Source of the DNA: Saprospiraceae bacterium
GTDB taxonomy: Bacteria; Bacteroidota; Bacteroidia; Chitinophagales; Saprospiraceae
Assembly (NCBI GenBank): GCA_020629035.1
Contig: JAHDEC010000010.1
Location: 1 to 64,000 of the forward strand
Length of the DNA stretch: 64,000 bases
Direction: 5' to 3'
The stretch's first letter is position 1; each line of letters begins with the position of its first letter. Positions 4,180 through 49,045 of this stretch are shown here, in pieces. The notes below the pieces were generated by a model. The model was not told the DNA's origin. It worked only from the letters and a program-made list of their open reading frames with translations, and searched no databases. The position numbers and the translations under genes are program-made.

Positions 4180-4285
4180 ATTAAGTTCTTATGAGTCTGC
4201 AAATATTCAAGCGGGTTCCGTTAAACAAAACATAAAAAATAGTCTTCAGAATAATACACTCAGCATTTCTTTTTAATTTAAAACC

Positions 4286-5074
4286 ATGATCAGTTTATCT
4301 ATAAAGACTTGCATAGCATGCGTTTTTATGTTCTGCATGTTAAACTCCAGCAGCATAAAATCACAAACTATTAGTGATGATTATCACGAGACTTTTGAAA
4401 TCCTAAAAGTAGACCCATCATTTTCCATCAGCAAAGAGCAAGTTGAGGATTTGACATCCCTTGAAGAAATCAACAAACACTTTAAACCTGAGTGGGTAAA
4501 ACAGTATTTCTCCGTAAAAACTATGGCCATTATTGATGGAAAGGAAAAAAGTGTGACTAGTGAAAACAACCATATAGATTCAGCACAAAAAGCCTTACTA
4601 AAACAAGCCGACGAGCACGAATTAGTGCACATTAGCATCAACTATTTACCGAATAACTCCTTAAAGCAAAACGAGGCAAAAGAAATACATTTTTCGTTTG
4701 CTTTCAAACCTAGCATAGATGCAGTTCCTTTGGAAGGAAACGCGACATTGGCCCATAAAATAAAGGAAGAATTAAGTGCCAAGAACTTAGCTTACCGACA
4801 AGAAAAACATCAGCTAGCCATTGCTACTTTTTCGATCTCAGCTGAAGGACATCCATTTAACGTGAAGATGGTTTCATCAACTAAAAACCCAACCATTGAT
4901 TCGGTGATTGTTGAACAACTAAATTGCATGCCGAAATGGAATCCAGCTAGTTATGCAAATGGTAAAGCAACACAACAAGATTTTGCATTGCTGATTGGCG
5001 ATGATCAAAGCTGCAATATTAATCTAGTCAACGTGGAGCAACACGAAAATTTCGGTCTACTCCATCGAAAATAA
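4286..5074 (+). CDS. TonB C-terminal-domain-like protein
   Basis: N-terminal hydrophobic anchor. C-terminal segment NVKMVSS...EQLNCMPKWNPASYANGKATQQDFALLI resembles the K-W-x-P-A-x-x-N-G-K motif of TonB C-terminal (energy transducer) domains. Confidence 0.4.
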   Translation: MISLSIKTCIACVFMFCMLNSSSIKSQTISDDYHETFEILKVDPSFSISKEQVEDLTSLEEINKHFKPEWVKQYFSVKTMAIIDGKEKSVTSENNHIDSAQKALLKQADEHELVHISINYLPNNSLKQNEAKEIHFSFAFKPSIDAVPLEGNATLAHKIKEELSAKNLAYRQEKHQLAIATFSISAEGHPFNVKMVSSTKNPTIDSVIVEQLNCMPKWNPASYANGKATQQDFALLIGDDQSCNINLVNVEQHENFGLLHRK

Positions 5075-6757: not shown

Positions 6758-6879
6758 AAGTAAGTAATAACTGTTTGGCGACTAAGATAATGTTTGTTGC
6801 TGAAGGATTAGATTTTGATTAACTTAATGTTTTACCTGAAATAAAATATATGAATTCAAACACTTAATTGTAGTCATTT

Positions 6880-7001
6880 ACATATTTTAATTTTTTATAT
6901 TTATTTTATTTTAATATATTTTAAACTTTTAATCAGTAGATTATAAATGTAATATATATTATATATATTATATTTAAATATTTACTTAAAATTATATAAT
7001 C
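6880..7001. repeat. AT-only low-complexity (TATATAT-type) tract in the promoter region
   Basis: Runs such as aatatatattatatatattatatttaaatattt lie directly upstream of the 7002 start codon. Confidence 0.6.
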
Positions 7002-7910
7002 ATGCAATCATTAACTTCCATAAAAATTATCTTGTTTTTATCTTTTTGCACTCATCTCCCAGCACAAACACCAAAAAATCTTAAAGACTTTAATACAATA
7101 CTTCCTCCAAACTGCATACCTATTAATGACACATTGCTTTGCGACCAAACTGAAGTAAGTAATTTAAACTGGAAAGAATACACATACTACATTAAGAAAG
7201 TAATGGGTGAAGAGTCCGTGGAAGCCAAATCAGCGATGAGTGACCAAGATGGTCATATGTTTAAATTAGACCCTGATAATGGCTCAAAAAAGGGCCGAAT
7301 ACCAGTCCATAAGTCCCAATACCATCATTACGCCTTTTATGACGACTACCCCGTAATCGGCATTAGCTTACAGCAGGCAAAGAATTTTTGCACTTGGAGA
7401 TCTAATGTGGTATTCGAACATTTTCTTGTCGAACGCAACATTCTAGAATCCAGCACTTTAAGCCAAAATCGAGATAATCATTTCACTATTGACAACTACC
7501 TACATAGCGAAATTGCCCAAGAGAATAAACATTTAGTAAGCCATTACCCTAGATACTTTATTCCATCAGAAGAAGAGTGGAGCCTATTGAAGGAAAAAAT
7601 TCAAAATAATGAAATTAAAATTGGAAAAATAAATTCAAGATCAGCCGCAAAAAAGCATCAAAACAAAAAGATAATACCTATCCAAGCAGTCAGAAACACA
7701 AGTCAAAAAACCAAAAACACATTTTATCATATCCTTGGAAATGTGTCCGAAATGATTGATGAAGAATTTTACGTGGAAGGCGGAGACTATACGCAAACGG
7801 CTGATGACATCTTACTTTTGGAGAAAAAGAAGGAAATCTATCCGAGTGATTTTGTGGGCTTTAGATGCTTTTTCGTGTGGGAAGAGATCGACTATGAACT
7901 TTACAAATAA
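7002..7910 (+). CDS. FGE-sulfatase (SUMF1/GldJ-like) domain protein, secreted
   Basis: Signal peptide. YPVIGISLQQAKNFCTWRSN matches the hPV..VsW.dA.aYC.W motif. GNVSEMIDEEF matches the GNVWEW-like motif. Terminal GFRCFF matches GFRC. Confidence 0.6.
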   Translation: MQSLTSIKIILFLSFCTHLPAQTPKNLKDFNTILPPNCIPINDTLLCDQTEVSNLNWKEYTYYIKKVMGEESVEAKSAMSDQDGHMFKLDPDNGSKKGRIPVHKSQYHHYAFYDDYPVIGISLQQAKNFCTWRSNVVFEHFLVERNILESSTLSQNRDNHFTIDNYLHSEIAQENKHLVSHYPRYFIPSEEEWSLLKEKIQNNEIKIGKINSRSAAKKHQNKKIIPIQAVRNTSQKTKNTFYHILGNVSEMIDEEFYVEGGDYTQTADDILLLEKKKEIYPSDFVGFRCFFVWEEIDYELYK

Positions 7911-8086
7911 TCTCATATTATATATTTTTATAATATATTGGAGACCAAACAGAATAACATTTGTCAAGGGTCTTTAAATGACAATTTACATTTATACTTG
8001 CCATTGATTATCTATTTGAGATTGTTTTACAGCCTTAATAATTTTAGCAACTCATTATTTGAGTTGAAATTTGTACTTTCGATTGA

Positions 8087-9931
8087 ATGAAGATTGAATC
8101 CAAATTGAGACTTACTCTACTCCTAGCTATTTGGTGTACAAGCATAGCTGGTGTACACGGACAAAAAGCCCTAATCATAGGTATTGATGGAATCCGCTCA
8201 GATGTTTTTGAATCTAGTCATACACCTGTGCTTGATGATTTAATTAGCGATGGGCTATATAGTCCGGATTGTCTCAACGATGATATAACCATTAGTGGGC
8301 CTGGTTGGTCAGCCATACTTTGTGGGGTGAGGTCTGAGAAACATGGTGTCACTGGCAATGACTTTTCTTCTAACAACTATGATGATTATCCGACCGTCAT
8401 TAAATACATCGAAGAAGCTAACCCTAACCTTAGCACCATTTCTATTTGTAATTGGAACCCAATTAATGATTTTATTGTCCAAAGCTATGCAGATACTAAA
8501 GAGAATGTTGGTTCAGATATAGATGTCGAGACTAGAGCTAGACACTATCTAGATGTCGAAGATCCAGACTTGCTCTTCTTACATTTTGACGAATGCGATG
8601 GTGCGGGTCATAGTACAGGATTTACGAGTGACTCTCCTGATTATGTCACTGCCATAGAAACCACTGATTCACTCATAGGCGAAGTCATTAATAGTTTACT
8701 GGCTCGACCAAACTACTCGGACGAAAACTGGGCAATTTTTATTACTTCTGATCATGGCGGGATAGGATTTAGTCATGGCGGCCAGACTATAGAAGAACGT
8801 AGGATTCCTTTTATCATTTCTGGAGATTCCATTGAAACTACGGTGATAGTAAAGGATAGTAGTCTTATATCTGTCAGCAATTGCTTGATGGATACAACTG
8901 AGTTGACATTTGATGGTGATAATGACTATGTAGAGTTCCCCCATATCCCAGATTATGATTTTGGACCAAATCAAGATTTTACAGTGGAGTGCAGAGTGAG
9001 AACATCTATGGCCGCGGATGTCGCTATAATGGGCAATAAAGATTGGGATAGTGGAAATAACAAAGGATTTGTATTCTCCTTTAAGTATCCAAGTGGACCT
9101 GAATGGAAAGTTAATATCGGCGACGGAAGTAACCGAGCTGATCTAAATATCGGTGCAAGTATTGCGGATAACGAATGGCACAGTCTTTCTGTCACCTTTG
9201 ATAGAGACGGTATGATGAAAATGTATCAAGAGGGTGTCTTTGTGGGCGAGACCTCTATTGCTTCTATCGGAGACATAGACAATAGCTCAGGTATATTCCT
9301 TGGCACAGATATCAACCAAGCATACGATTTTGGTGGATCTATTGCTGAAGTACGAATTTGGGATACAGTATTAGGAGCATCTTCAATCGCTGATTATGCT
9401 TGTAATGAAATAGATGCTCAGCATCCAAATTATAGCTCACTTATTGGATACTGGAAACTAGATGATGAGAATGCTACTGTGATTGAGGATTTTTCTACCA
9501 ATGATAATGATGGGACTATATCAGATGCAACATGGATGGCTACAGATTCTATATATGTGTATGATTACTCGGAGACTCCAAAACTTGTTGATCTTCCGGT
9601 CTCAGTACTCGGTCACCTCTGCATGGCTGCCGAGCCTTCTTGGGATATTGATGGACAAAGCTGGGTAGCCGATTGCACCTACGACTTATCGGCTTGCGTT
9701 AATCCAGGCTACATCACTTGGAATGGATCTATATCTGACAATTGGCATGATGCAAGCAATTGGGATAAAGGCAGAGTGCCCCTTGTTTGTGATAATGTTA
9801 TCATACCAGCAGATTTTTCTGTTAATATCCAAGCGGGTTCAACTGCAGTTTGCTACACCCTTGAAACAATAGGCAACGCCGAATTGTGTCAAGATGCCGG
9901 AGCAAACTTCGAAGTGCTCACTAATGACTAA
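8087..9931 (+). CDS. Alkaline-phosphatase-superfamily nucleotide pyrophosphatase/phosphodiesterase (ENPP-like) fused to a C-terminal LamG/concanavalin-like domain
   Basis: Signal peptide. IIGIDGIRSD, GPGWSAILCG, HFDECDGAGHSTGF and ITSDHGG are the metal-ligand motifs of type I phosphodiesterase/AP-superfamily enzymes. The C-terminal half (FTVECRVRTSMAADVAIMGNKDWDSGNNKGFVF...) is LamG-like. Confidence 0.65.
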   Translation: MKIESKLRLTLLLAIWCTSIAGVHGQKALIIGIDGIRSDVFESSHTPVLDDLISDGLYSPDCLNDDITISGPGWSAILCGVRSEKHGVTGNDFSSNNYDDYPTVIKYIEEANPNLSTISICNWNPINDFIVQSYADTKENVGSDIDVETRARHYLDVEDPDLLFLHFDECDGAGHSTGFTSDSPDYVTAIETTDSLIGEVINSLLARPNYSDENWAIFITSDHGGIGFSHGGQTIEERRIPFIISGDSIETTVIVKDSSLISVSNCLMDTTELTFDGDNDYVEFPHIPDYDFGPNQDFTVECRVRTSMAADVAIMGNKDWDSGNNKGFVFSFKYPSGPEWKVNIGDGSNRADLNIGASIADNEWHSLSVTFDRDGMMKMYQEGVFVGETSIASIGDIDNSSGIFLGTDINQAYDFGGSIAEVRIWDTVLGASSIADYACNEIDAQHPNYSSLIGYWKLDDENATVIEDFSTNDNDGTISDATWMATDSIYVYDYSETPKLVDLPVSVLGHLCMAAEPSWDIDGQSWVADCTYDLSACVNPGYITWNGSISDNWHDASNWDKGRVPLVCDNVIIPADFSVNIQAGSTAVCYTLETIGNAELCQDAGANFEVLTND

Positions 9932-9990
9932 AGCCAATTATGACCCTTGCTTCGCTAATGAAGATGATCAGCATTGGCCTAAATAACAAA

Positions 9991-10019
9991 AGCACAAGCT
10001 GCGCTTACAGTCTTGTGCT
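9991..10019 (-). terminator. Hairpin terminator downstream of the flotillin gene (minus strand)
   Basis: Perfect 8-bp inverted repeat AGCACAAG ... CTTGTGCT. On the minus strand it is followed by TTTGTTATTT. Confidence 0.45.
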
Positions 10020-10042
10020 TCTATCCTTTATAGACAACTAGC

Positions 10043-11578
10043 CTATTCTTCTGAGTCTTCTGCTTCTTCCACTGCTGGTTCTTCTTTTTTCTGGACCAAG
10101 GCTGCAGGCAAACTCATACCTGATTGCTCCAAGAAGTCATTTAATTGGGGCATCATTCCGTAAAGACCTTGGACAAAGTTCCCAACTCCCTGACCGCTTC
10201 CATTATCATAAACTACTACCTTATCTATATCTAGCTCCTTAATAGCAGATGTTTGGATTTGCGCCAATTCCGTTAATTTGTCGATCATCAAGTAGCCTAT
10301 GGCACTTTGCGGGTCTCCCCCAGCCGCTTCTACTAATTTCTGAAAACCTTCTGCCTGCTTAGTTAACAAAGCTTCTTGTCCTTTTGCTTGCGCCATATAC
10401 TTAGCAAGTAAAGCATCTGCTTCCCCCTTAGCTGTTTCTCTCTGTCTTTCTGCTTCTGCCTGTGCAGCTATCACCGCTTTTTGCTTCTCGATATCAGCAT
10501 CTACCACTTCGTCTGCTTGCTTTTTTGCCAGCTCCATTTTTGCTCTAGCATCTTCAGATTCTTTCTCTGCAATATATGCTTCTTCTAGTGCTTTGGCTGC
10601 AGCCACTTTTCTCGCAGCTGTTGCTCTTCTCTCGGCTTCAGCGACTTCTATATCTCTGGTGGCATTCGAGGCTGCAATTTTAATACTGGCTGTATTTTTA
10701 CCTTCTGTTGCGATGGCGCGTGCATCCGCCTCTCCGATTTCTGCTTTAGAATTTGCTTCGGCTGTTCGCACTCTTTGTTTTTGTGTTGCTTCTGCTTCTC
10801 CGATATCGGCTAAACTGTTTGCATTTGCGATTTGAATTCTTTGCACCTGATTAGCTTCTGCTTCTCCAATTTCTGCTCGACTATTTGCATCAGCCACCTT
10901 AATTCGTTGCTCTTGCTGGGCTTCAGCTTGACCTATCGCCCCAGTTCGCTCTTCGTTCGATACTTTTACTTTTGCATCGTTGATTGCTTTAGCAGCCGCC
11001 TCCTTACCTAAAGCTTGGATATAGCCGGATTCATCTTGAATATCAGTCACGTTTACGTTGATCAGCTCTAGTCCGATTTTATGCAGCTCGTTTCCTACAT
11101 TCTGATAAACAGAATCTACAAATTTATCTCGATCAGTATTTAATTCTTCGATATCCATATTGGCAATCACCAATCTCATTTGACCCATTATTATATCGTG
11201 AGCCAAAGAACGAATGGCAGGCTGCTCCAAGCCCAAAAGTCGCTCAGCTGCAGCAATCATCAGATGTGGCTTGTTACTTACACCCACAGTGAACTGCGCA
11301 GGCACTGAAACTCGAATATTCTGCTTTGACAAGGCATCCTGAAGGTTTACATCGATGCTTATTGGAGTTAGATCGAGGTACCGATAATCTTGAATAACAG
11401 GCCATACAAAAGTAGCACCACCGGCATAACATTTGGCTGATTGTTCACCTCCAGTCTTCCCATAGACAACCAGGATTTTATCGGATGGACATCGCTTATA
11501 GCGACTGATGAAAAATAATAGTAATAAGATAGCGAGAAACAGCACAAAGCCCACTACCAATAGCAATTGAGTACCCAT
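10043..11578 (-). CDS. Flotillin / SPFH (band 7) domain protein, YqiK-like
   Basis: N-terminal TM anchor, SPFH-like core, then long A/E-rich heptad repeats (AEANSKAEIGEAEA...) typical of bacterial flotillins. Confidence 0.8.
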   Translation of the reverse strand: MGTQLLLVVGFVLFLAILLLLFFISRYKRCPSDKILVVYGKTGGEQSAKCYAGGATFVWPVIQDYRYLDLTPISIDVNLQDALSKQNIRVSVPAQFTVGVSNKPHLMIAAAERLLGLEQPAIRSLAHDIIMGQMRLVIANMDIEELNTDRDKFVDSVYQNVGNELHKIGLELINVNVTDIQDESGYIQALGKEAAAKAINDAKVKVSNEERTGAIGQAEAQQEQRIKVADANSRAEIGEAEANQVQRIQIANANSLADIGEAEATQKQRVRTAEANSKAEIGEADARAIATEGKNTASIKIAASNATRDIEVAEAERRATAARKVAAAKALEEAYIAEKESEDARAKMELAKKQADEVVDADIEKQKAVIAAQAEAERQRETAKGEADALLAKYMAQAKGQEALLTKQAEGFQKLVEAAGGDPQSAIGYLMIDKLTELAQIQTSAIKELDIDKVVVYDNGSGQGVGNFVQGLYGMMPQLNDFLEQSGMSLPAALVQKKEEPAVEEAEDSEE

Positions 11579-11602
11579 AATAATTTATATTTAGTTAAAA
11601 GA

Positions 11603-12130
11603 TCAGTTACTTTCTAATTCAACAAAAACAAATTCACCTTCGACTTCCACTACAACTATTCTTGCTCCTGTTTTTATTTCAATGTTGTCCCTAGTTTTTG
11701 CTTTAAACTCTCTGGTTGCTCCCTTTACACTTACGTTTACGAGCCCACTTCCACCTTTAGGGATTTTTAGATACACATCGCCACTTTGATACAAAGCATC
11801 TTCCATTGACCAGTTTACATTTTCTTCGTTGCGCAATAACAACTTCAACAAATAGCTGAGCAACATAAAAGCTAACACACCAGCCACGATACCTATCAGG
11901 ACAGCTAACCAGGTACTTTGTTCGTTTACCAATAGTACTTTTATAACCCAACTTGCCACTGATAAAAAGGTCAATATTCCTTTAATAACTCCGAGCCCTC
12001 CTCCGGTTTCAGTATCCACATCAGCACCCACATCTACATCCAAATCGAGACCTCCAAGGATAGACAAAAACAAGAGCAATACTAAGATTCCACCTGCGAA
12101 AAGAGAGATATATGTAAGTGTAGTCACCAT
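11603..12130 (-). CDS. NfeD-family membrane protein (YqiJ/YuaF-like partner of flotillin)
   Basis: Multi-TM N-terminus plus a C-terminal OB-fold-like segment (GATREFKAKTRDNIEIKTGARIVVVEVEGEFVFVE). It lies directly upstream of flotillin in the same orientation, the canonical pairing. Confidence 0.65.
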   Translation of the reverse strand: MVTTLTYISLFAGGILVLLLFLSILGGLDLDVDVGADVDTETGGGLGVIKGILTFLSVASWVIKVLLVNEQSTWLAVLIGIVAGVLAFMLLSYLLKLLLRNEENVNWSMEDALYQSGDVYLKIPKGGSGLVNVSVKGATREFKAKTRDNIEIKTGARIVVVEVEGEFVFVELESN

Positions 12131-12880: not shown

Positions 12881-14671
12881 ATGCACATGAAAGCAACTAC
12901 TTTCAATTTAATTATCTCGTGTATCTTCTTTTCCTTTCAAGGAATATCGCAAGGTGTTATTTCATTTGGCGCAGGAAACGATACAGATATTATAGTCACA
13001 GCCAGCAGTTCACAAGGTAACTCTACACCTGACAAAATAGTCAATGGTGATGGTCTTGATGCAGAAAAAATGGCCGCAGCAAGGTTTTTAACCCAAGCGG
13101 GATTTGGAATGAAGATGCAAGATGTAGAGCAAGTCATTAACATTGGCTATGAATCTTGGATCAATCAAGAATTTGCTAAACCTCTGAGTCTCTATGATGA
13201 TCAAGTGGAAGAAATATGGTCTACCGTTTACCAGATGAGACTCGATGCAGGTATAGAGCCTGATATGATTTTTGGTCCTCTATCAGAACATTTTAACTAT
13301 GGATGGTGGCAGAATGTGATTACCTCAGATGACCAACTACGACATCGTATGGCCTTTAGTTTAAGCCAAATTTTGGTTGTTTCAGGTAAATCAGATCTTG
13401 ACAACTACGCTAGAGCGATGTCATCTTATTACGATGTGTTGTATAAAAATGCCTTTGGGAATTACTATGATTTACTTCTCGAAGCTACCCTTCATCCAGC
13501 TATGGGTTACTATTTATCGCACTTAAATAATGAAAAATCAAACCCAGAAAGTTTGATGAGAGCCGATGAAAACTATGCACGTGAAATCATGCAACTCTTT
13601 ACGATTGGATTGCATCAGTTAAATCAGGATGGAACCGTAAAAATGACAAGTGATGGGTTTCCACTACCCACCTATAACATAGAAGATATTAGAGAGTTAG
13701 CTAAGGTATTTACTGGATTAGGGCCAGGAGCCGTAGACCCCTTCTATCCGCATGTTGATCTTCACTTTGGCTTGGGCTTTTGGGGTGTAGAAAAGCACAC
13801 ACCGATGGCAATGTACAACGAGCACCACGACCAGAGCACTAAACACTTAATCGAAGGCAAAACACTTCCTGCAGGTCAGGATGGTATGAAAGATGTGGAG
13901 GATGCTGTTATGCATTTATTTAACCATCCAAATGTAGGACCCTTTGTGGCAAGACAACTAATTCAACGACTAGTCAAATCGAATCCTACACCTGGCTATA
14001 TTTCCAGAGTAGCTTCTGCATTTAACAATAACGGCGAGGGCGTTCGAGGTGATCTAAAAGCGGTAATTAAAGCCATCTTATTAGATTCAGAAGCACGATC
14101 ATGCGAAGCACTGGAAGATCCAAATAATGGCAAACTTAGAGAACCTATCACTAGATATGCACAACTGGCTAAAACCTTTGAACTAGTAAGTCCATTCGGT
14201 AGATACTGGGACCCGAGTGCTGGTCATCTAGAATGGACAGGACAAATGGCCTTAAATGCACCTTCTGTTTTCAACTTTTATGAGCCAGATTTTCAGCCGG
14301 CTGGTGAATTAACTCAAGCTTACTTGGTGGCTCCAGAATTTAAAATTCACAATACCAAAACAGCCATTGGATATATTAATATGATTAATGCAGCAACTAT
14401 CTGGGACACCTTTATTCGTTCTTGGGAGCTAGACTATGGCGATGAGGTGGTGCGTATGAATACTAGCGACTATGAAGCCAAAGCTGATGACATCGAGCGA
14501 GTTTTAAATGATCTTGACATACTGCTCTCTTACGGACAAATAGAGGATTGGTACCGAGACGAAATTCGAACCGCATGCAATGAGCAGTTATGGGGAGACT
14601 TAAATAAAAACAAAGTGAGAATGGCGATTTACGCCATAATGATTTCACCTTATTACACGATTCAAAAGTAA
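12881..14671 (+). CDS. DUF1800 family protein
   Basis: About 600 aa with a signal peptide. DUF1800-like core (HFNYGWWQNVITSDDQLRHRMAFSLSQILVVS). It is followed by its characteristic DUF1501 partner. Confidence 0.65.
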   Translation: MHMKATTFNLIISCIFFSFQGISQGVISFGAGNDTDIIVTASSSQGNSTPDKIVNGDGLDAEKMAAARFLTQAGFGMKMQDVEQVINIGYESWINQEFAKPLSLYDDQVEEIWSTVYQMRLDAGIEPDMIFGPLSEHFNYGWWQNVITSDDQLRHRMAFSLSQILVVSGKSDLDNYARAMSSYYDVLYKNAFGNYYDLLLEATLHPAMGYYLSHLNNEKSNPESLMRADENYAREIMQLFTIGLHQLNQDGTVKMTSDGFPLPTYNIEDIRELAKVFTGLGPGAVDPFYPHVDLHFGLGFWGVEKHTPMAMYNEHHDQSTKHLIEGKTLPAGQDGMKDVEDAVMHLFNHPNVGPFVARQLIQRLVKSNPTPGYISRVASAFNNNGEGVRGDLKAVIKAILLDSEARSCEALEDPNNGKLREPITRYAQLAKTFELVSPFGRYWDPSAGHLEWTGQMALNAPSVFNFYEPDFQPAGELTQAYLVAPEFKIHNTKTAIGYINMINAATIWDTFIRSWELDYGDEVVRMNTSDYEAKADDIERVLNDLDILLSYGQIEDWYRDEIRTACNEQLWGDLNKNKVRMAIYAIMISPYYTIQK

Positions 14672-38491: not shown

Positions 38492-39269
38492 GCATTTAGA
38501 GCAACGATCTACCGAAGAACTAACGCGCATCATTAATGATGAGGATAAAACGGTCGCATTTGCCGTAGAAAAATCCATCCATCAAATCAATAAAAGCATA
38601 GACGCTATTTTTAATCAAATGAAAAAAGGTGGCCGTTTGTTTTACATTGGTGCAGGAACTTCTGGGCGATTAGGCATACTAGATGCCTCTGAATGCCCTC
38701 CTACTTTTGGCGTGGATGATGATTGGGTTATCGGTTTAATTTCGGGTGGAGATAAAGCCATTCGGAAGGCTCAAGAATTTGCCGAAGATGATACTAATCA
38801 GGCCTGGATTGATTTACAAGCATATGCCATTTCTCCGAATGATATTGTCTTGGGACTCGCCGCTTCCGGCACAACGCCCTATGTTGTTTCGGGACTGCAA
38901 ACAGCTAGAGAAAACCAGGTTCCTACCGTCTGTATCACTTGTAATACAAACACGCCTATTGCAGCACAGGCAGATTACCCTATCGAGGTTATTGTCGGTC
39001 CAGAAGTAGTAACCGGCAGCACTCGAATGAAATCAGGAACAGCACAAAAATTGGTCTTGAATATGATATCGACCACGGTTATGATCAAGCTAGGCAGAGT
39101 GGTAGATAATCGGATGGTGGATATGAAACTTAGCAATGATAAACTGGTGGATAGAGGTACTAAGATGGTCATGGAACAAACAAAATTAGATTACAAAACT
39201 GCTCAAAAATTTCTACTGAAAGAAGGCAGTGTGCGAAAAGCCATAGCTTTTTTTAACACTAGATTGTAA
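38454..39269 (+). CDS. murQ: N-acetylmuramic acid 6-phosphate etherase
   Basis: SIS-domain motifs RIINDEDKTVAFAVEKS, GRLFYIGAGTSGRLG, ECPPTFGV. Confidence 0.85.
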   Translation: MINKITEQASNHRHLEQRSTEELTRIINDEDKTVAFAVEKSIHQINKSIDAIFNQMKKGGRLFYIGAGTSGRLGILDASECPPTFGVDDDWVIGLISGGDKAIRKAQEFAEDDTNQAWIDLQAYAISPNDIVLGLAASGTTPYVVSGLQTARENQVPTVCITCNTNTPIAAQADYPIEVIVGPEVVTGSTRMKSGTAQKLVLNMISTTVMIKLGRVVDNRMVDMKLSNDKLVDRGTKMVMEQTKLDYKTAQKFLLKEGSVRKAIAFFNTRL

Positions 39270-39368: not shown

Positions 39369-40547
39369 CTAGGCACTGGCATTTTCGAGTTGTATGAATT
39401 TAATTTTCATTAGTCTTTGCTTACTTATTGATTTAGCACATACTCCTCTGCAAATGGAAGATAAAATCTCAATGTTACTTTTTAATTGAAGAGAGTCAAG
39501 TACTTGTTGTTGGTACTCTTTGTTTATCTCAATTTTATATACGCAGTCGGAAATAAGGATTTTTCCTTTTCTTATGTACCCGATTTTTCTGTAACAATTC
39601 CTTCCAACCCTTCCTAAAAGAATGTTCCCTTTGTTTGCATATGCTTCTTGTCTTATTTCAGCTTTTCTACGATCTCCATTTATATTAGTTAGACCATAAT
39701 CTAAGCTGGTTGTATGAACAAATTTAGATTTTAGTGATTTGAGCTCTTTATGAGAAAAAGATCCTCTTCTAATTTCCGCCCCTAAGTCATTTAGAGAAAC
39801 TAGTTTTTTATTTTGATTATTTTGAAAATGCCAATATTTGAAATCGAATGTCTCATGAAGTAAATTACTTTGTATTTTCAAGTTTTTGACTTTTGCTTTT
39901 GGGTCAAACTTACAAAGTGTTACCATGTAGTTTTTTACTGGTTCTATTTTCTTGATTATTAGTATAGTTGTTTTTGCTTCAGTTGTTTTGAACGACCTTT
40001 CAGGTATGTCAATTATTTTAATTAGTTTATAATTTTTCAGAATGGCTTCTCTGAAGCCCTTGTAGGTATGTGAAGCAGAAATGGAATCTGAAACTATTAT
40101 TCCAAGTATACCATTTTTTTTGATCGAGCTTAAACCATATGCAGCAAATAATATTTCTGTATTAAAATTGTTCAGGTTTAGGTAATTAAGAATTTTTATT
40201 TCACTCAGGAGCTTTTTATAATTAGAATCAAATTTTAATTTTATATAAGGAGGATTGCTTATAGCGGCATCTAATTTTGTTATTTGTAGTGATTGAAATA
40301 TATTTTCTTTCCTAAGATCAATTTGATAAAGTTTGGAGTCGTTAATTAAAATGTTCTTTAGCTTATTTTGAAGATTTATGTCAATTCCTATGACATTTGA
40401 TGTCTTATAGACATTTTGAAATTGTTTACTTAAAGCTCCATCTCCAATTCCTAAATCTAGCACATAGGTAGGTTCGATAAGCGGTAGTGCCTGAATTAAT
40501 ATTTTGCTTATACTATCAGATGTATAATGTGCTCCATTGTTTATCAT
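39369..40547 (-). CDS. Gamma-class amino-methyltransferase (M.TaqI/HemK-like; probably N6-adenine DNA MTase) with C-terminal target-recognition-like region
   Basis: Motif I VLDLGIGDGAL lies before motif IV NPPY (about nt 40245-40256). The C-terminal roughly 200 aa are basic. It is the last gene of the AT-rich 4-gene cassette and its start overlaps the upstream gene's stop. Confidence 0.6.
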   Translation of the reverse strand: MINNGAHYTSDSISKILIQALPLIEPTYVLDLGIGDGALSKQFQNVYKTSNVIGIDINLQNKLKNILINDSKLYQIDLRKENIFQSLQITKLDAAISNPPYIKLKFDSNYKKLLSEIKILNYLNLNNFNTEILFAAYGLSSIKKNGILGIIVSDSISASHTYKGFREAILKNYKLIKIIDIPERSFKTTEAKTTILIIKKIEPVKNYMVTLCKFDPKAKVKNLKIQSNLLHETFDFKYWHFQNNQNKKLVSLNDLGAEIRRGSFSHKELKSLKSKFVHTTSLDYGLTNINGDRRKAEIRQEAYANKGNILLGRVGRNCYRKIGYIRKGKILISDCVYKIEINKEYQQQVLDSLQLKSNIEILSSICRGVCAKSISKQRLMKIKFIQLENASA

Positions 40548-41500
40548 TATATAAGATTAGTTAAGTGATAAATGTATGTTTTGCCAGACCCTTGGCTGCC
40601 AAATTTCTTTTCCAAAGGGAAATCATAAACAATATAAGTATTATTCAAAGCCGCATATAGTGCCATTCCTAATAAATGAGGTCTGGGTCCAATTGGACAT
40701 AAGTAAATGTCATATTGAGATTTCCAATTTAATTCTAATTCTTTTAAAGTATTTATTATGTCAAATGGAGAAGTCGCTAAGCAATTTTTTGCATTGTCGA
40801 ATACATCATACCTGAGTAATGTATCCGAGTTCAATTTAAGAGCAATTTGATCCCAACCTGGTTTGTAAGAGGGAAAACCAAAAATTGGGTAAATTTCTTT
40901 AGGGTTGGTAGATTCATTTATGGCAACAAATCTTTTCTTGTCAAAACCAAGTGATACGATTAGTAATTTGTCTTTTTTCGATGCTTTTTTTATAAACCCA
41001 GGCACTGGTGACGAACTACCTTTAAACATTTCAATTAAGTCGAAAGGTTCTTCAGAATCTTTTAAGTTTGGTAGATTTTTTCTTTCATACTTCTTAGGCT
41101 GTGTATAGCTAACAAAAAAAAGTTTGGTTTTAATTTCCTTTACGAACACACTAATTGAATAGAAAATCAAAGCTTGTCTCATAGAAGTGATGTCTAAGAG
41201 AACTGATTTAGTTGTTAAGTTTAGTGAATTTAAAAGTTTGAAGTATTGCGGAATTATAGGTATGGAATTTAAACTTTTATCAATGATCTCTCCGTTTTGT
41301 TTTAATGTATATGAAAAAGACTGGTAATTGTCTTTTGACGATAGGAGTAAGATTAATCCTTTATAACCCTTTAGTTTTGTTAAAAGTGCTGACGATCTAT
41401 GATCTTCTTCTTGCAATGAATCAGTTATCACAATATCAACATTTGAGCTGAATATTGCACGATTATGATCAGATAGTATATAGGATTCTTGATACATCAT
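40547..41500 (-). CDS. Hypothetical protein of the island; possible PD-(D/E)xK-type nuclease
   Basis: No clear family. VLLDITSM...(20 aa)...VFVKEIKTK gives a hhhD...hh(E)xK arrangement. Translationally coupled on both sides (ATGA overlap). Confidence 0.3.
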   Translation of the reverse strand: MMYQESYILSDHNRAIFSSNVDIVITDSLQEEDHRSSALLTKLKGYKGLILLLSSKDNYQSFSYTLKQNGEIIDKSLNSIPIIPQYFKLLNSLNLTTKSVLLDITSMRQALIFYSISVFVKEIKTKLFFVSYTQPKKYERKNLPNLKDSEEPFDLIEMFKGSSSPVPGFIKKASKKDKLLIVSLGFDKKRFVAINESTNPKEIYPIFGFPSYKPGWDQIALKLNSDTLLRYDVFDNAKNCLATSPFDIINTLKELELNWKSQYDIYLCPIGPRPHLLGMALYAALNNTYIVYDFPLEKKFGSQGSGKTYIYHLTNLI

Positions 41501-43422
41501 TGATGGTCTGAGAATAGATTTGGAGTTTCTGAGATTGATCGAAAAAGATACTTAGTGACTATGGATTCAATTTGTTTTTCAGACCCAATAAGTAAGCCTT
41601 CTATATCTTGGGCACTTATTTTAAGTTTTCTTTTTCTTCTATGGGATATACCAAAATAAGGGCAATAAATATGATTGATGTGAAAATCAAAAAATTCTAT
41701 CCCATCTTTGGTTTTGCTTGACTCTCCTTGTTCAAGAATTTTGTTTTTTAAGGCTTCTTGGAAAAGAATAAAGGCTTCTTCCTTATTTTGTTTTAAAGTA
41801 TTGTATTCAGTTGTGAAATGGTTTTGTTCTACTTCTCCTAATGTCGATGATGGAGAGATATGGTGAGATCTAAAAATTTTACCTAATGCTAAGGTGAAAT
41901 ACTTTAATCTGAATCCATGAGGTTCATATGATTCAATTTCATCTATTTTGTTCTTGCTTACTTTATGGGCTGCATCGGACTGTTCAATTTGGGTTAGTTG
42001 CCTAGGTTTTTTAAAGTCTAATCTGTCACTAGAATAGAACAGGGCATTATTGAATGATTCTTCAACTAATTCTAAAAAACTTCTTATTACACCTGATGAC
42101 AAGGCAGAGAAAGTTTGAATTCCAGAATATAGTTTCGCGGCATTTATCTCATGGCCTAAAAGAAACTCAGTGTGGTATAAAGTATTGCCAATTAAATCTT
42201 TATAGCGTTGATTTTGATTTTCAATCATTTCCTTAAGTTCTAAGGCAGGAATTATATTTGATTTTGTTCGCAACAAAAGACATATTGAATTTCTAATTAT
42301 TAATGGATCTAATGAGGAGAAAAAACCCTTTAACGATTCCAAGGTAGTTTTATCATAATTAAGTTTTCGAGATTGAATTTCAAGAACTTGATATAATTGT
42401 TTTTTTAAGTTATTAAACTGATCTATCGACAAAACTTTGAATTCTTCACCTCTTGGATATTTTTTAAGGTACCATTTCAAAGATGTATGGTCTTCGGATT
42501 TTGATAGGATGTTTTGCTCTTCTAGATAAATACTAAGCCGTTTGTCACAAATCTTTACTGCTAAATTTATAAATTCTTGAATGTTGGAGTATTCTGCAGT
42601 GTCAGTTGTCAAAGAGACATAATCGTCTTTTTTGCGAATTTCTTCTTGAGAAGCAACCTTATAGGATTTGATGCCATTTGTAATTACTGCGTAATCAAAT
42701 ACAAGGTTATGATTACTTTGCTTAAGTAGAGTATTTAAAGTTATCTGTTGATACTTAAGAAGCTTTTCAAATTCATCTATATATATATGAAAAGTTAAAT
42801 GAGAAAAGTATTCGATTTTTTTTAATTCTTCTACTAGATCAGTTATTATTATTCCAGGACCTGTACCGTTAGGAGAATCATTTAATGTAGAATTTGAGAA
42901 TGTTTCTAAATCAATTAACTTCTTCTGTAATACATTTTTTAGTTCCGCAAGAGAGTTGATATTGTGAGTTGAAAAACGGTAAGCTAACTTTTTGTTAAAA
43001 GGTTCAATGTTTTCAATTGTCATTAAACCTTCTTTTATTGCCTCTTGAATAAAGTCAATAATTTCAAGAGTTATCACACAATTAAAATATAGATTAAATA
43101 AGCCTGACCAAACTTTCTCAGAAGTCTCTTTCCCTGTAAAGCTTGATATAAATCTTGAATCAACTAGGTAGTAAAATCCGATATGTTTCTCACTGCCAAT
43201 TAAGTTTTTTATAGTTGGCTCAGATTGATAGGAATATTTTTTTTCTTGCCACGAGTTGCACTTGTAAAACATGGTTTTACCAGTACCTCTACTGCCTTCA
43301 AAAATTAATGGCTTTTCGGATATCTTTGCTCTAAATGGTTCGTCGACAAAATATTTCCACACATTGTCTCCCATCTGTTCAGTTCGCAACTTTGAAAACG
43401 GGTTATATGGTTTTAAATTCAT
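41497..43422 (-). CDS. Large P-loop NTPase (Walker A/B; AAA/ORC- or STAND-like) of the island
   Basis: Walker A IFEGSRGTGKTMF (about nt 43271-43312). Walker B HIYIDEFEKL. Long alpha-helical C-terminal region. The likely start is the internal ATG at 43422, directly after the upstream stop; the ORF track extends to 43491. Confidence 0.6.
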   Translation of the reverse strand: MNLKPYNPFSKLRTEQMGDNVWKYFVDEPFRAKISEKPLIFEGSRGTGKTMFYKCNSWQEKKYSYQSEPTIKNLIGSEKHIGFYYLVDSRFISSFTGKETSEKVWSGLFNLYFNCVITLEIIDFIQEAIKEGLMTIENIEPFNKKLAYRFSTHNINSLAELKNVLQKKLIDLETFSNSTLNDSPNGTGPGIIITDLVEELKKIEYFSHLTFHIYIDEFEKLLKYQQITLNTLLKQSNHNLVFDYAVITNGIKSYKVASQEEIRKKDDYVSLTTDTAEYSNIQEFINLAVKICDKRLSIYLEEQNILSKSEDHTSLKWYLKKYPRGEEFKVLSIDQFNNLKKQLYQVLEIQSRKLNYDKTTLESLKGFFSSLDPLIIRNSICLLLRTKSNIIPALELKEMIENQNQRYKDLIGNTLYHTEFLLGHEINAAKLYSGIQTFSALSSGVIRSFLELVEESFNNALFYSSDRLDFKKPRQLTQIEQSDAAHKVSKNKIDEIESYEPHGFRLKYFTLALGKIFRSHHISPSSTLGEVEQNHFTTEYNTLKQNKEEAFILFQEALKNKILEQGESSKTKDGIEFFDFHINHIYCPYFGISHRRKRKLKISAQDIEGLLIGSEKQIESIVTKYLFRSISETPNLFSDHQ

Positions 43423-44348
43423 TGGGTCGTTTTTCTTCTTATTAAATGCTTCCAATCCGGAGACTTTTTGTGAAATATTGGTAACGACCAATTTGGAATT
43501 CTATCGCTAAATATCACAGCAAAGTCAAGTTTTTTAAAACCTCTGAAACTTACTCCTCGTGTTTTTTGTATTTCATTAAAATAACTTACAGCTTTCTCCC
43601 TTTCATTAGAATCTTTTCTCCAAATTGCGGTGTTTTCTTCATGAAATATTCTGTTTTCGTTAGTAAGCTCTTCTACAACAACCACATTTATGTTTTCCAG
43701 AGATCCTGCTTGCTTTAATTTTTTGACACTATCAATGTATCCAATTAATGCAAGATAAGTTATGCTGAAATCATTGCTTTTTGCATATTCTTTTATGAAT
43801 TCTATGTTCTGTGATTTCCAAAAATTCTTAAGTTGCATTCCAGATCCAATGCAATCGTCAACAATTATTAATTGCTCATAGTTTTGAATTATATCTTGAT
43901 TGATATTATGTAAAAAATAAACATTTTCTTTTGGTACTGATAGTTTATGAACTAAATCACCTGTCACCAAATTTCCACTTTCATATGGCTTGTCAGAATC
44001 TAATAAGGGGATAAAACAAGTTTTGTTCTTTAATTCGGTAATAGTCCCATTGTAATAGTTTCGAGGAAGTATGTGATCTTTAAAACTATTTAGAAAACTT
44101 TTAATTTGACTTGACCAGACTAGTTCATATATGCCATATTCTAGAAGTTTGATCAAATCCTTTTTTGAATAGAAAATTGTGTTTAGCAATATTTTAAGGA
44201 GATAGTATTTGCCTTCATCATCATTATCGAAATTGAAATTTATCCACTCTTCAATTTCCTTGAATGAAAGGAAATCACATTTTGACCTAACAAGAGCTTT
44301 AAGCACTGGTAGTTTAGCTCTATAGTATTGTGAATGATTTATTTCCAT
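43419..44348 (-). CDS. Phosphoribosyltransferase (PRTase)-domain protein, first gene of the island cassette
   Basis: Central PRPP-binding-type motif LIIVDDCIGSGMQL (about nt 43830-43871). Four hydrophobic residues, an acidic pair and a small-residue loop, as in type I PRTases. An N-terminal roughly 150 aa region of unknown function. Confidence 0.5.
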   Translation of the reverse strand: MEINHSQYYRAKLPVLKALVRSKCDFLSFKEIEEWINFNFDNDDEGKYYLLKILLNTIFYSKKDLIKLLEYGIYELVWSSQIKSFLNSFKDHILPRNYYNGTITELKNKTCFIPLLDSDKPYESGNLVTGDLVHKLSVPKENVYFLHNINQDIIQNYEQLIIVDDCIGSGMQLKNFWKSQNIEFIKEYAKSNDFSITYLALIGYIDSVKKLKQAGSLENINVVVVEELTNENRIFHEENTAIWRKDSNEREKAVSYFNEIQKTRGVSFRGFKKLDFAVIFSDRIPNWSLPIFHKKSPDWKHLIRRKTTQ

Positions 44349-44570
44349 TTAGTTATTTTCATTTTTGCTTGTGCCTAACAATAAATAAAGATCACTTAAA
44401 CACTTTGAATTTGTAGAGAATTAAGAAGCTTTTCTAGCACCCTATCTTCCCATTAGTTAGAGATGATAAATATCTTTTTGAGTGCTAAGTAAATCAAACT
44501 AAACATTTTTCAGCTTACTCATCTTTGGAAAAGCTACCAAATAGTTTAATTAGTATATTAATATAGGTAT

Positions 44571-45167
44571 TTAACCTCTATTCTTCTCAAGCAGAATCAT
44601 CATCATTAAGCCTAATAAGATGCGATCATCATCATCCGAATCCATAGGGCCTTCTTTCGTAATTTCAAAATTTCTACCAAAAAAAGAAGGCAGTTTTCGC
44701 AATCTAACAATTTCCTTATCTTTTGTATTTTTTACGATATATGATGGATTAAATAAATAGCCGGTAAGCATGCTTATAATCGGGATTTGCCCCAAAATAG
44801 AGTCTCCAACTTTTGCCCAAGCATTTTCCTCGCTTACTGTGTATTGTATATTCTGATTTTCGTCTAGAATAGTATACTGGGCTTTCCAAATTGACTTCCA
44901 ACCTTTTCTTGCAATTTTCCCAAATTCTTTACCATCCTTATCAAAGAATGCATAAGCCGCAGAAAAATCCAACCACTTATCGGCTTTGATCCGATATAAT
45001 TGTTCGGTTTTTGATTGATCACTGAAAATGAGAATGTCTTCCTTAAGCTTAAATAGTTTTTGTTTTACGTAAGCAATAATCTTTCCTTTAGAGTCGGTTG
45101 CTGTAAAGTCATTCGATATAGAGGAAATTTTAAATTGAAGGGAGATAGGAAAAGTAATGTTCTGCAT
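44571..45167 (-). CDS. LURP-one-related (LOR)/Tubby C-terminal-like family protein (DUF567)
   Basis: About 198 aa. YVKQKLFKLKEDILIFSDQ...YRIK.. pattern typical of bacterial LOR/scramblase-like proteins. Confidence 0.5.
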   Translation of the reverse strand: MQNITFPISLQFKISSISNDFTATDSKGKIIAYVKQKLFKLKEDILIFSDQSKTEQLYRIKADKWLDFSAAYAFFDKDGKEFGKIARKGWKSIWKAQYTILDENQNIQYTVSEENAWAKVGDSILGQIPIISMLTGYLFNPSYIVKNTKDKEIVRLRKLPSFFGRNFEITKEGPMDSDDDDRILLGLMMMILLEKNRG

Positions 45168-46831: not shown

Positions 46832-47416
46832 ATGTTTTTAGAACCCAGTTTTAGAGGCCAACGCAGCGGTTGGATCGAAGTCATTTGTGGCTCTATGTTT
46901 TCGGGTAAAACTGAGGAACTAATCAGAAGACTTAAAAGGGCTAAGATAGCTAATCAAAAAGTAGCAATCTTTAAACCGGCTAAAGATGTTAGATATGACG
47001 AGCAAGCCGTCGTTTCGCACGACGATAATGCCATCCAGTCGCTTACCCTTGAAAAAAGTAAAGAAATCTTAGCACATATTCATGATGTAAATGTAGTAGG
47101 TATCGATGAAGCCCAATTTTTCGATGAGCACCTAACTGCTGTTTGCCAGCAACTAGCGATTAGAGGAATTCGAGTAATTATTGCCGGACTGGATATGGAT
47201 TTTCGAGGAAATCCTTTCGGTCCAATACCGCAACTCCTAGCAGTAGCTGAGTATATTACTAAAGTTCATGCAATTTGTCCACATTGTGGAAGTCTAGCTA
47301 CCCATTCCTACAGACTGAGTGAAGAAAACGAAACAGTTTTGCTTGGTGAAAAGGATAAATATGAGCCAAGATGTCGCGTTTGTTATAGTATGGGGAACAT
47401 ATTAAATTTATCCTAA
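46832..47416 (+). CDS. tdk: Thymidine kinase
   Basis: P-loop [18 protein letters not shown]-terminal zinc ribbon CPHCG...CRVCY. Confidence 0.9.
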
Positions 47417-47527: not shown

Positions 47528-49045
47528 ATGCAAGAAGCTACTCAAATACGATCAGCGCTCATTTCTGTTTTTCACAAGGATGGATTAGAAGCTGTGATTC
47601 CAGGACTAATCGAAAATAAAGTAAAAGTTTACTCTACTGGAGGTACTTATGCTTTCTTAAGTAATTACGATGTAGACTTACATAAAGTCGAAGACCTAAC
47701 AGGATATCCATCTATTCTAGGCGGTCGTGTAAAAACCTTACATCCTAAAGTATTTGGTGGTATTCTAGCGAAACGTGAAGAGGGACATTTAGCAGAGCTC
47801 AGTGAATACACCATTCCAACCTTTGATTTGGTGATTGTGGATCTCTACCCTTTCGAAGAAACTGTAAAGAGTACTAATGATGAGACAGCCATTATTGAGA
47901 AAATAGACATTGGAGGCATTGCCTTAATTAGAGCGGCGGCCAAAAACTTTAAAGATGTGGTAGTTATACCATCTAAAGATCAGTATCCTGCTTTAAAAGA
48001 TTTACTCGACAATGAAGCGAAAAGCAACATTGAACAAAGAAAAAAATTAGCGGCTTCGGCCTTTAGTATATCATCTAATTATGACAACCATATCTCAGCA
48101 TATCTTGCTGAAGAAAAGAAATTCAACATAAATCTAGCCAGTTCTACCTCGCTGCGATATGGAGAAAATCCTCATCAGCAAGGAATCTTTTTTGGCGAAC
48201 TAGCACCAATGTTTAGACAAATTTCTGGCAAATCTTTATCCTTTAATAATTTAGTGGATGTCGATGCGGCAATCCAGCTTATGAAGGAGTTTAAAGATAA
48301 TCCAATCACTTGTTGTGTATTAAAACACACCAATGCATGTGGAGTGGCAACGAGGTCTACCATGATAGAAGCTTGGAAAGACGCACTAGCCGGCGATCCT
48401 ACTTCGGCGTTTGGTGGCGTAATTATTTTCAATGCTGAGATAAATGCAGAAACAGCGGAAGCCATTAACGAGATTTTCTATGAGGTACTTATTGCTCCTT
48501 CTTTTTCAGAAGAGGCTCAAGCTATATTGACTAAAAAGAAAAAGCGGGTTTTACTGGAGCTAAATCGCTATCCATCAGCCGATAAACAATTTAAATCCAT
48601 TTTGGATGGAGTAATTGTACAGGATACAGATGCTCAGGTGGAAGATAAATCCTCCTTCGAAAATAAAACATATAAAGAAGCAACACCGGACCAATTAACG
48701 GCCCTAGCATTTGCTAATAAGTGCGTAAAGCACTTGAAGTCAAATACTATAGTATTAATTAAAAACAACCAACTAATCGGCATGGGTTGTGGACAAACAT
48801 CCAGAGTGGATGCATGTAAACAAGCCATTGAAAAAGCACACAAATTTGGTTTTGATACCGAAGGATCGGTTATGGCATCGGATGCCTTCTTTCCTTTTCC
48901 TGATTGCGTGCAGTTAGCTGGAGAAGCTGGCGTGAAAGCTATCGTGCAGCCTGGTGGCTCGATTAATGACCAAATGAGCATCGATGCATGTAATGATCTA
49001 AATATCGCAATGGTATTTACAGGGGTAAGGCATTTTAAACATTAA
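47528..49045 (+). CDS. purH: Bifunctional AICAR transformylase / IMP cyclohydrolase
   Basis: MGS-like N-terminus ALISVFHKDGL...KVYSTGGT. AICARFT core. About 505 aa. Confidence 0.9.
   Translation: MQEATQIRSALISVFHKDGLEAVIPGLIENKVKVYSTGGTYAFLSNYDVDLHKVEDLTGYPSILGGRVKTLHPKVFGGILAKREEGHLAELSEYTIPTFDLVIVDLYPFEETVKSTNDETAIIEKIDIGGIALIRAAAKNFKDVVVIPSKDQYPALKDLLDNEAKSNIEQRKKLAASAFSISSNYDNHISAYLAEEKKFNINLASSTSLRYGENPHQQGIFFGELAPMFRQISGKSLSFNNLVDVDAAIQLMKEFKDNPITCCVLKHTNACGVATRSTMIEAWKDALAGDPTSAFGGVIIFNAEINAETAEAINEIFYEVLIAPSFSEEAQAILTKKKKRVLLELNRYPSADKQFKSILDGVIVQDTDAQVEDKSSFENKTYKEATPDQLTALAFANKCVKHLKSNTIVLIKNNQLIGMGCGQTSRVDACKQAIEKAHKFGFDTEGSVMASDAFFPFPDCVQLAGEAGVKAIVQPGGSINDQMSIDACNDLNIAMVFTGVRHFKH

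Follow-up and report, generated by a model that had tools for sequence, protein, structure and literature searches.

What is the protein encoded at positions 43419..44348 (minus strand) in a contig of a Saprospiraceae bacterium (JAHDEC010000010.1 of assembly GCA_020629035.1), and what might it do together with the genes that follow it? The window, by which we mean the whole stretch analysed, is positions 1 to 64,000 of this contig, and a first-pass annotation had described the 309-aa product as a phosphoribosyltransferase (PRTase)-like protein with a possible role in defence. We are confident that the product is a very divergent type I phosphoribosyltransferase belonging at full length to the PRTase-CE family, and that its gene opens a four-gene operon which is translationally coupled and horizontally mobile. 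With regard to function we tentatively propose, as a reading with somewhat less than an even chance of being right, that the operon is a restriction-modification-like immune system without a nuclease, in which the PRTase is an effector that uses phosphoribosyl pyrophosphate (PRPP).

The PRPP-binding loop that drew attention to the gene was placed at 43830-43871 and is indeed there, give or take 3 nt: 43830..43874 (minus strand) translates as QLIIVDDCIGSGMQL, with a hydrophobic strand, the acidic pair D164 D165 and G-S-G-x-Q. The segment LIIVDDCIGSGMQ has the strand, two acidic residues and small-residue phosphate loop of the PRPP motif of the type I phosphoribosyltransferase superfamily. An alignment of 24 homologues (30-70% identity) shows no variation at D164, D165, G168, G170 or Q172, and the only highly conserved cysteine of the protein, C166, lies within the loop. 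The match to Pfam PF24390 (PRTase-CE) spans the entire model, with E 2.6e-41 and 142.6 bits (cut-off 27) and with residues 32-305 aligned to profile positions 1-253 of 253; the protein also matches PADLOC PRTase_III-A profiles (E 1e-17). Given the invariant DD-x-x-G-x-G-x-Q and these family matches, the resemblance of the motif is not due to chance. Nor is the protein an orphan, as PF24390 is present in 47 of 47 homologues, which RefSeq names 'phosphoribosyltransferase-like protein', and the family has 2370 representatives at 50% identity clustering (E<=1e-3), nearly all of about 300 aa and with end-to-end matches. The family is thus already catalogued, under PF24390 and PRTase_III-A, and is apparently uncharacterised.

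In the case of better known PRTases there was no match to Pribosyltran or UPRTase in Pfam at E<=1 and none in NCBIfam at E<=0.1, where models are wanting for the PRTase and for the products of the next two genes of the operon, and a sequence search of the family alignment against all PDB chains gave nothing meaningful. Alignment of the family profile with E. coli Upp by hhalign put the PRPP loops and the following strands in register and was not significant (E 0.22), so that it counts as a check of consistency and no more. Structure prediction had been suggested as the check on the first assignment, and it bears it out: the AlphaFold2 model made with the 24-sequence alignment is confident (pLDDT 88.9, pTM 0.87) and has the phosphoribosyltransferase (PRT) core fold, a parallel sheet flanked by helices, with the PRPP loop intact. 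The nearest solved folds are uracil PRTases, which rank top in Foldseek, weakly (E 3e-3), and the flagged protein shares with the classical type I enzymes, Upp in particular, the core fold and the architecture of the PRPP loop.

The type I core starts at about residue 110 and has a predicted topology of a strand (110-114), a loop, a helix and short strand, a strand (159-167) ending in the PRPP loop, and two more strand-helix units. The first loop, P-L-L-D-S-x-K-P-x-E-S-G-N (residues 114-126, 43971..44009, minus strand), has P114, D117, P121, S124 and N126 invariant in the 24 homologues and is the sole low-confidence stretch of the model, with pLDDT <50 at residues 118-124. Its position in the predicted topology suggests that it is equivalent to the pyrophosphate (PPi) loop of classical PRTases, and while conserved it differs from the classical loop at that position. 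The conserved C-terminal region likewise differs from known hoods. The N-terminal 150 aa had been described as unrecognisable, and taken in isolation the N-terminus gave no new domains in Pfam at E<=10. However, the region is shorter than that, at about residues 1-108, and is a confidently predicted helical domain that is kept across the family and lies within the Pfam model.

The PRTase gene heads an operon in which three genes follow on the same strand, with overlaps of 4 nt, 4 nt and 1 nt. The second gene (41497..43422, minus strand) encodes an ORC/Cdc6-like AAA+ ATPase of 641 aa, its ATG overlapping the PRTase stop codon (ATGA), and its start position is the one given by gene calls on identical contigs. 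It matches Pfam PF24389 (ORC-CDC6-like) over its full length (E 2.5e-78), and 17 homologues keep the Walker A G-x-R-G-x-G-K-T and the Walker B D-E without change. Its C-terminal 240 aa or so carry strongly conserved motifs, and sequence searches of PDB with the protein and its alignment found nothing meaningful.

The third gene (40547..41500, minus strand) overlaps the ATPase stop by 4 nt and encodes a 317-aa tandem-CARF (SAVED-like) nucleotide-sensor protein. It matches the PADLOC CARF6 group, a label that we take to come from Makarova et al. 2020. Its closest folds, Csm6, Can1, Can2, Cam1 and Cap5, place it among proteins with a CARF/SAVED sensor domain, and no effector domain fused to it was detected with Pfam or PADLOC.

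The last gene (39369..40547, minus strand), which overlaps the stop of the CARF gene by 1 nt, encodes a TaqI/Eco57I-like gamma-class N6-adenine DNA methyltransferase of 392 aa, with an NPPY motif at 40245-40256 (minus strand). It matches Pfam N6_Mtase (4e-12) and Eco57I (2e-10) and, over its full length, PADLOC MTase_II PDLC03285 (E 1.2e-49), and N-P-P is invariant in 23 homologues. The operon thus includes a methylase with its catalytic motifs in place, as a restriction-modification-like defence system would. Searches of the four proteins with Pfam, NCBIfam, PADLOC and PHROGs detected no other toxic domain and no nuclease domain, although a cryptic nuclease in the ATPase C-terminus is possible. 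Nor did the ATPase C-terminus, both CARF halves and the methylase C-terminus, searched as separate fragments, reveal further domains in Pfam at E<=10. The PRTase is the sole enzyme of the cassette apart from the ATPase and the methylase.

Related loci, for which we use L numbers, came from a scan of one genome per species (28), from metagenomes (46 more) and from single-protein look-ups. Gene order was judged by profile searches of all open reading frames (ORFs), and neighbours by all-against-all clustering of flanking ORFs. In 51 loci of at least five phyla (Bacteroidota, Clostridia and other Bacillota, Spirochaetia, Dehalococcoidia and Syntrophomonas) the order is PRTase, ATPase, CARF, methylase, with the methylase fixed last. 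L013/L052 and L032 depart from it in having no TaqI-like methylase, L012 in having the methylase upstream, and L015 in being interrupted after the ATPase. The PRTase is paired with a PF24389 ATPase in nearly all of the 84 loci with contigs that run past the PRTase gene, and the three-gene core of PRTase, ATPase and CARF is retained even in distant members. The only conserved neighbours in these 84 loci are the ATPase, CARF and methylase genes, with thyA in one clade, and dprA, comFA, cas10 and CD-NTase genes are not among them. The database families PF24390 and PF24389, like PADLOC PRTase_III-A and CARF6, have the window proteins as full-length, high-scoring members, but these databases supply nothing beyond names, and the clade of the window adds to the families the TaqI-like methylase as a fixed fourth gene. 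The PADLOC name suggested a link to type III CRISPR-Cas, which we discarded, as cas genes were not conserved in any of the loci examined.

The PRTase gene is sporadic and horizontally transferred. Its flanking genes differ from locus to locus, and in relatives genes of other defence systems or of mobility are often among them: restriction-modification genes of type I and of the MmeI type, an HNH gene, DUF4007, integrases and recombinases. In the window itself the G+C content (GC) of the cassette is about 0.30 and that of its flanks 0.37. The low GC, the non-syntenic flanks, the conserved operon with its methylase and the restriction-modification neighbours in relatives all agree with the defence context proposed in the first-pass annotation. 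A phage origin is unlikely, since the PRTase, ATPase and CARF proteins have no match in PHROGs and a scan of viral contigs gave no relatives; the methylase matches only generic DNA-methyltransferase families in PHROGs.

These loci also bear on whether the protein could be a housekeeping salvage PRTase, or a diverged ComFC, that has a methylase as neighbour by accident. Its PRT fold, with uracil PRTases as the nearest solved structures, would fit such a role, as would two ORFs within 5 kb in the window, both named without a domain search: one read as thymidine kinase (tdk, 46832-47416, plus strand), about 2.5 kb from the PRTase start on the opposite strand and with three unrelated genes between, and one read as purH (47528-49045, plus strand), about 3.2 kb from that start. 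However, none of the ComF and salvage PRTase models of Pfam, NCBIfam and PADLOC matches the protein, those for Upp, Apt, Hpt and PyrE in Pfam and NCBIfam included, its gene is sporadic with non-syntenic flanks, and the invariable partner of that gene is the ATPase gene, comFA and dprA never being coupled to it. The hallmark of ComFC is an N-terminal zinc finger of four cysteines, and the family has no conserved N-terminal cysteines for one. We thus give this explanation next to no chance: the earlier judgement that this is not a salvage enzyme is upheld by sequence, length and neighbourhood, and the alternative then allowed for, a ComF/ComFC protein beside dprA, has failed.

The architecture differs in a few family members. 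In L033 (8001-11159) a single protein of 1052 aa has an unknown N-terminus of about 390 aa, an AAA_22 ATPase and PRTase-CE. The defence island where it stands by itself has, on one side of it, an MmeI-type restriction-modification gene and, on the other, a protein of >3636 aa that has helicase and Eco57I methylase domains. In L087 (126-2848) a 336-aa AAA gene is followed by a 557-aa protein in which an unknown N-terminus of about 300 aa is fused to PRTase-CE, and there is no CARF gene; L086 has a 447-aa protein of similar form, X-PRTase-CE, solo on a short contig. PADLOC recognised only the PRTase in the fused proteins when their N-terminal extensions were searched. PRTase and AAA ATPase are thus the constant pair, and CARF and methylase are clade-specific additions. 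L087 also lies near N6_N4 methylases and an integrase, and a nearby gene with an HVO_A0261_N domain suggests a possibly archaeal context.

We suggest that the four proteins would work together as follows. The methylase would label host DNA as self, and the ORC/Cdc6-like ATPase would be a DNA-engaging switch that permits the system to act on foreign DNA without the mark, in the way envisaged for BrxC and PglX of BREX. The PRTase would then be the catalytic effector, spending PRPP to make a nucleotide or destroying one by the reverse reaction, and the resulting disturbance of nucleotide pools, plausibly of pyrimidines at the dUMP/dTMP level, would block phage replication or arrest the cell. The effector-less tandem-CARF protein would bind a nucleotide ligand and tune the complex allosterically, the ligand being perhaps a product or substrate of the PRTase or an alarm nucleotide made elsewhere.

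That the PRTase should be effector rather than accessory is suggested by its constancy in the modular architectures of L033 and L087, by its being the only enzyme besides the ATPase and methylase in a cassette with a CARF protein that has no effector domain, and by the precedent of other defence PRTases. ShosT has a PRTase fold and needs PRPP binding for its toxicity (PMC12961424), and it disrupts purine metabolism (PMC11961720). The retron type III effectors and OpnC are further defence PRTases that are toxins or needed for defence (cited in 10.1101/2025.09.30.679545). The likeness of the flagged PRTase to these is in a broad sense only, and the toxic or nucleotide-depleting role first suggested for it by analogy with ShosT would still have to be proven. 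Although ShosTA also has a defence-associated PRTase fold, we find neither sequence similarity nor close structural similarity to ShosT, and there is no adjacent gene for a DprA-like protein such as the antitoxin ShosA that partners ShosT, the conserved neighbours here being ATPase, CARF and methylase, plus thyA in one clade. The defining features of ShosT, ComFC and the salvage families were each looked for and are absent, so the protein belongs to none of them.

BREX offers a parallel to the methylase and ATPase, having an Eco57I/N6_Mtase-type N6-adenine methylase (PglX) and a large ORC/Cdc6-like ATPase (BrxC), and no recognisable nuclease; the window methylase has weak matches to PglX (5.5e-8 in PADLOC and 7.8e-7 in NCBIfam). 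However, the cassette has no homologues of PglZ, BrxA, BrxB or BrxL, its ATPase has 0 matches in PADLOC, the BrxC models included, and its PRTase and CARF proteins have no BREX counterpart. In the case of the CARF/SAVED effectors of type III CRISPR and CBASS (Csm6, Can1, Can2, Cam1, Cap4, Cap5), the likeness is in the CARF fold, which is apparently present twice per chain as in Can1 or SAVED. In contrast to those systems, the cassette has no fused effector and no Cas10 or CD-NTase, and neither of the latter is conserved in the 84 loci.

The presence of a CARF sensor without a cyclase could be accounted for in another way, with the PRTase as a signal synthase. The ATPase would sense foreign DNA, the PRTase would make a messenger from PRPP and a base or nucleotide, and the messenger would be bound by the CARF protein, the CARF-ATPase complex being the effector, for example as an ORC-like clamp that blocks replication. 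CARF/SAVED proteins are dedicated receptors for nucleotide messengers, and the folds nearest to this one are Csm6, Can1, Can2, Cam1 and Cap5. With no Cas10, CD-NTase or other cyclase conserved in the 84 loci the PRTase is the only candidate for a nucleotide-producing enzyme. The PRTase and CARF genes are also co-inherited in about 50 loci, including the distant L032 and L038. However, this arrangement leaves the system without a recognisable effector, as no downstream effector domain was detected, and the PRTase-CE and AAA ATPase combinations without CARF in L033 and L087 are hard to fit with a dedicated PRTase-to-CARF axis. We know of no PRTase that produces a second messenger. We regard this, the main rival to our reading, as possible and rather unlikely.

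Genes of nucleotide metabolism unexpectedly accompany the cassette in some relatives. The nearest clade (43-50% identity to the window) has 12 loci (L001, with thyA at 7207-8001, L002, L004, L005, L006, L039-L044 and L046) in which thyA lies directly upstream of the PRTase gene, its stop overlapping the PRTase start (TAATG or ATGA). The operonic ThyA is canonical (Pfam E 1e-128), with the catalytic cysteine conserved, and is 65% identical without gaps to E. coli ThyA. Genes beyond thyA are not shared among the 12 loci, and a segment of L040 that contains thyA and the four-gene cassette (about 8.1 kb) has on either side a copy of a direct repeat of about 1 kb (4043-5019 and 13131-14187, 91-93% identical, containing a DnaJ-domain ORF); thyA thus seems to travel with the cassette. 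We had considered that thyA might mark an insertion hotspot in a thyA-folA context, but both flanks vary between loci and no folA follows, and we rejected this. L040 also has a 22-nt tandem array of 3.7 copies (6592-6673) upstream of thyA.

Three loci that are otherwise unrelated have a dUTPase gene (dut/DCD family) beside the cassette: in L038 at 5659-6099, on the same strand as the methylase gene and overlapping its 3' end, in L037 at 369-797, upstream of the cassette, and in L026 at 13689-14135, downstream of it. ThyA and Dut both work on the dUTP-dUMP-dTMP branch. The operonic thyA, the adjacent dut and the uracil PRTase-like fold may link the system to nucleotide metabolism, and they point to dUMP/dTMP metabolism in particular, though only as a lead. 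The window cassette has no thyA, and the proximity of the tdk ORF is curious in the light of the thyA/dut link in relatives, yet may be a coincidence. A more specific form of the proposal is that this is an uncharacterised, nuclease-free, methylation-gated system whose executioner is a PRPP-dependent PRTase acting on pyrimidine (dUMP/dTMP-related) or uracil-related substrates, that CARF would read a PRPP-derived nucleotide, and that thyA and dut would give self-protection or buffer the pools; so detailed a version we think unlikely to be right in full.

Several points weigh against a PRTase effector as proposed. The main blind spot is the C-terminal 240 aa or so of the ATPase, which could hide a nuclease or other effector. 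A CARF sensor normally has its effector fused downstream of it; here nothing is fused, an arrangement that suits a signalling PRTase roughly as well as one that is an effector. The distant L032 and L013 have no such methylase, which precludes methylation gating as the core mechanism family-wide, and the thyA/dut association might be hitch-hiking and not function. We found no experimental or descriptive paper on this system in the searchable literature, and neither the 2014 CARF/WYL paper nor the CoCoNuT paper mentions it, so that every functional role given here to the four proteins, together with complex formation and methylation gating, is inferred. In contrast the family membership, fold, motif conservation, operon conservation, mobility and lack of a detectable nuclease or cyclase are observed. 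Lastly, the flexible loop of classical PRTases is apparently absent or very short in the model (residues 136-158), which could be compatible with a macromolecular substrate or with no catalysis at all.

The first of these would have the PRTase phosphoribosylate a base in the unmethylated DNA or RNA of an invader, or remove the base by pyrophosphorolysis, with N6-adenine methylation protecting the host. In salvage PRTases the flexible loop shields a small-molecule active site, and its apparent loss would fit this, as would the strict association of the PRTase with an ORC-like ATPase that presumably binds DNA and with a DNA methylase, which suggests DNA as the target. An adenine ring nitrogen is able to attack PRPP, as in ATP-PRTase. 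Nucleic-acid binding by PRTase-fold proteins has precedents in ComFC and PyrR (PMC5512222). However, the proposal is wholly conjectural, the PRTase has no motif that we could identify as binding nucleic acids, some family members have no methylase, and phosphoribosylation of DNA by a type I PRTase is without precedent. We consider it distinctly improbable. Absence of catalysis would make the PRTase-like domain a sensor of PRPP or nucleotides that reports the metabolic state, or phage-induced changes, to the ATPase. Retained chemistry is the more typical reason for such invariance as that of the acidic pair and G-S-G-x-Q in more than 20 distant homologues, though they could have been conserved for binding alone, and we think a pure sensor very improbable.

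With regard to the surroundings of the cassette, the 222 nt of intergenic DNA upstream (44349..44570, minus strand) presumably carries the operon promoter and, unlike the corresponding region in the closest clade, has no thyA. A scan of it gave no convincing sigma-70-type promoter or terminator, Bacteroidota promoters being outside the coverage of the scan. The low-GC cassette is bracketed by an imperfect direct repeat of 33-36 nt (repeat families D8 and D9), with a consistent spacing of 5461-5464 nt (about 5.46 kb). The left copy (39206..39238, plus strand) is at the 3' end of a MurQ-like gene and encodes the peptide KFLLKEGSVRK, and the right copy (44667..44702, plus strand) reads KFLPKKEGSFR and lies inside an ORF of the minus strand. 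Similarity between the copies ends at the repeat borders, and the repeat may be an insertion scar or may be due to chance. The ORF with the right copy (44571-45167, minus strand), just upstream of the cassette, encodes a 198-aa LURP-one-related (LOR)/tubby C-terminal-like protein with weak Pfam matches below the gathering score, and no counterpart of it adjoins the cassette in any related locus. Elsewhere, the strongest compositional outlier of the window is 10001-12000 (GC 0.42, GC skew -0.22, AT skew -0.18), and Rfam and tRNA scans had no matches anywhere in the window.

The neighbourhoods of individual relatives include some further genes that may be useful to record. Directly downstream of the cassette in L025 (12954-15401) is a gene for an 815-aa protein of unusual architecture, with an ADP-ribosylglycohydrolase domain fused to a type I HsdM methylase. 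In L013 (Spirochaetia) there are S-adenosylmethionine-dependent (SAM) methyltransferase and HNH endonuclease genes upstream (383-2231), and DUF4007 and a 1178-aa AAA protein downstream (6663-11095). In the Marinilabiliales loci L008 (6518-7392) and L007 (4187-4365) the 1.5 kb before the cassette hold several tandem arrays with a period of 21 nt; such repeats are not consistent between loci, and there is nothing like them in the window or in most other loci.

Nucleotide chemistry has so far been productive in the study of defence, with CBASS, Thoeris, type III CRISPR and the nucleotide-depleting enzymes as examples. The cassette joins a methylase, an ORC-like ATPase and a CARF sensor, each understood elsewhere, to a class of enzyme that is understood in immunity only for ShosT. 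Novelty may lie in the fixed methylase and in the thyA/dut link, and the operonic thyA and adjacent dut are a concrete, testable metabolic lead. If the PRTase is the effector, the system would be a new mode of anti-phage action, PRPP-dependent chemistry gated by DNA methylation, and a class of ligand would be assigned to an orphan CARF family. If, more specifically, it is an executioner acting on pyrimidines, the pairing of a CARF sensor with a PRPP-based signal or effector would be the first of its kind, as would a defence operon that brings its own thymidylate synthase. The family is large, with its 2370 representatives spread over several phyla and including gut Clostridia, so that a result for one member would generalise to a system that is widespread and directly testable.

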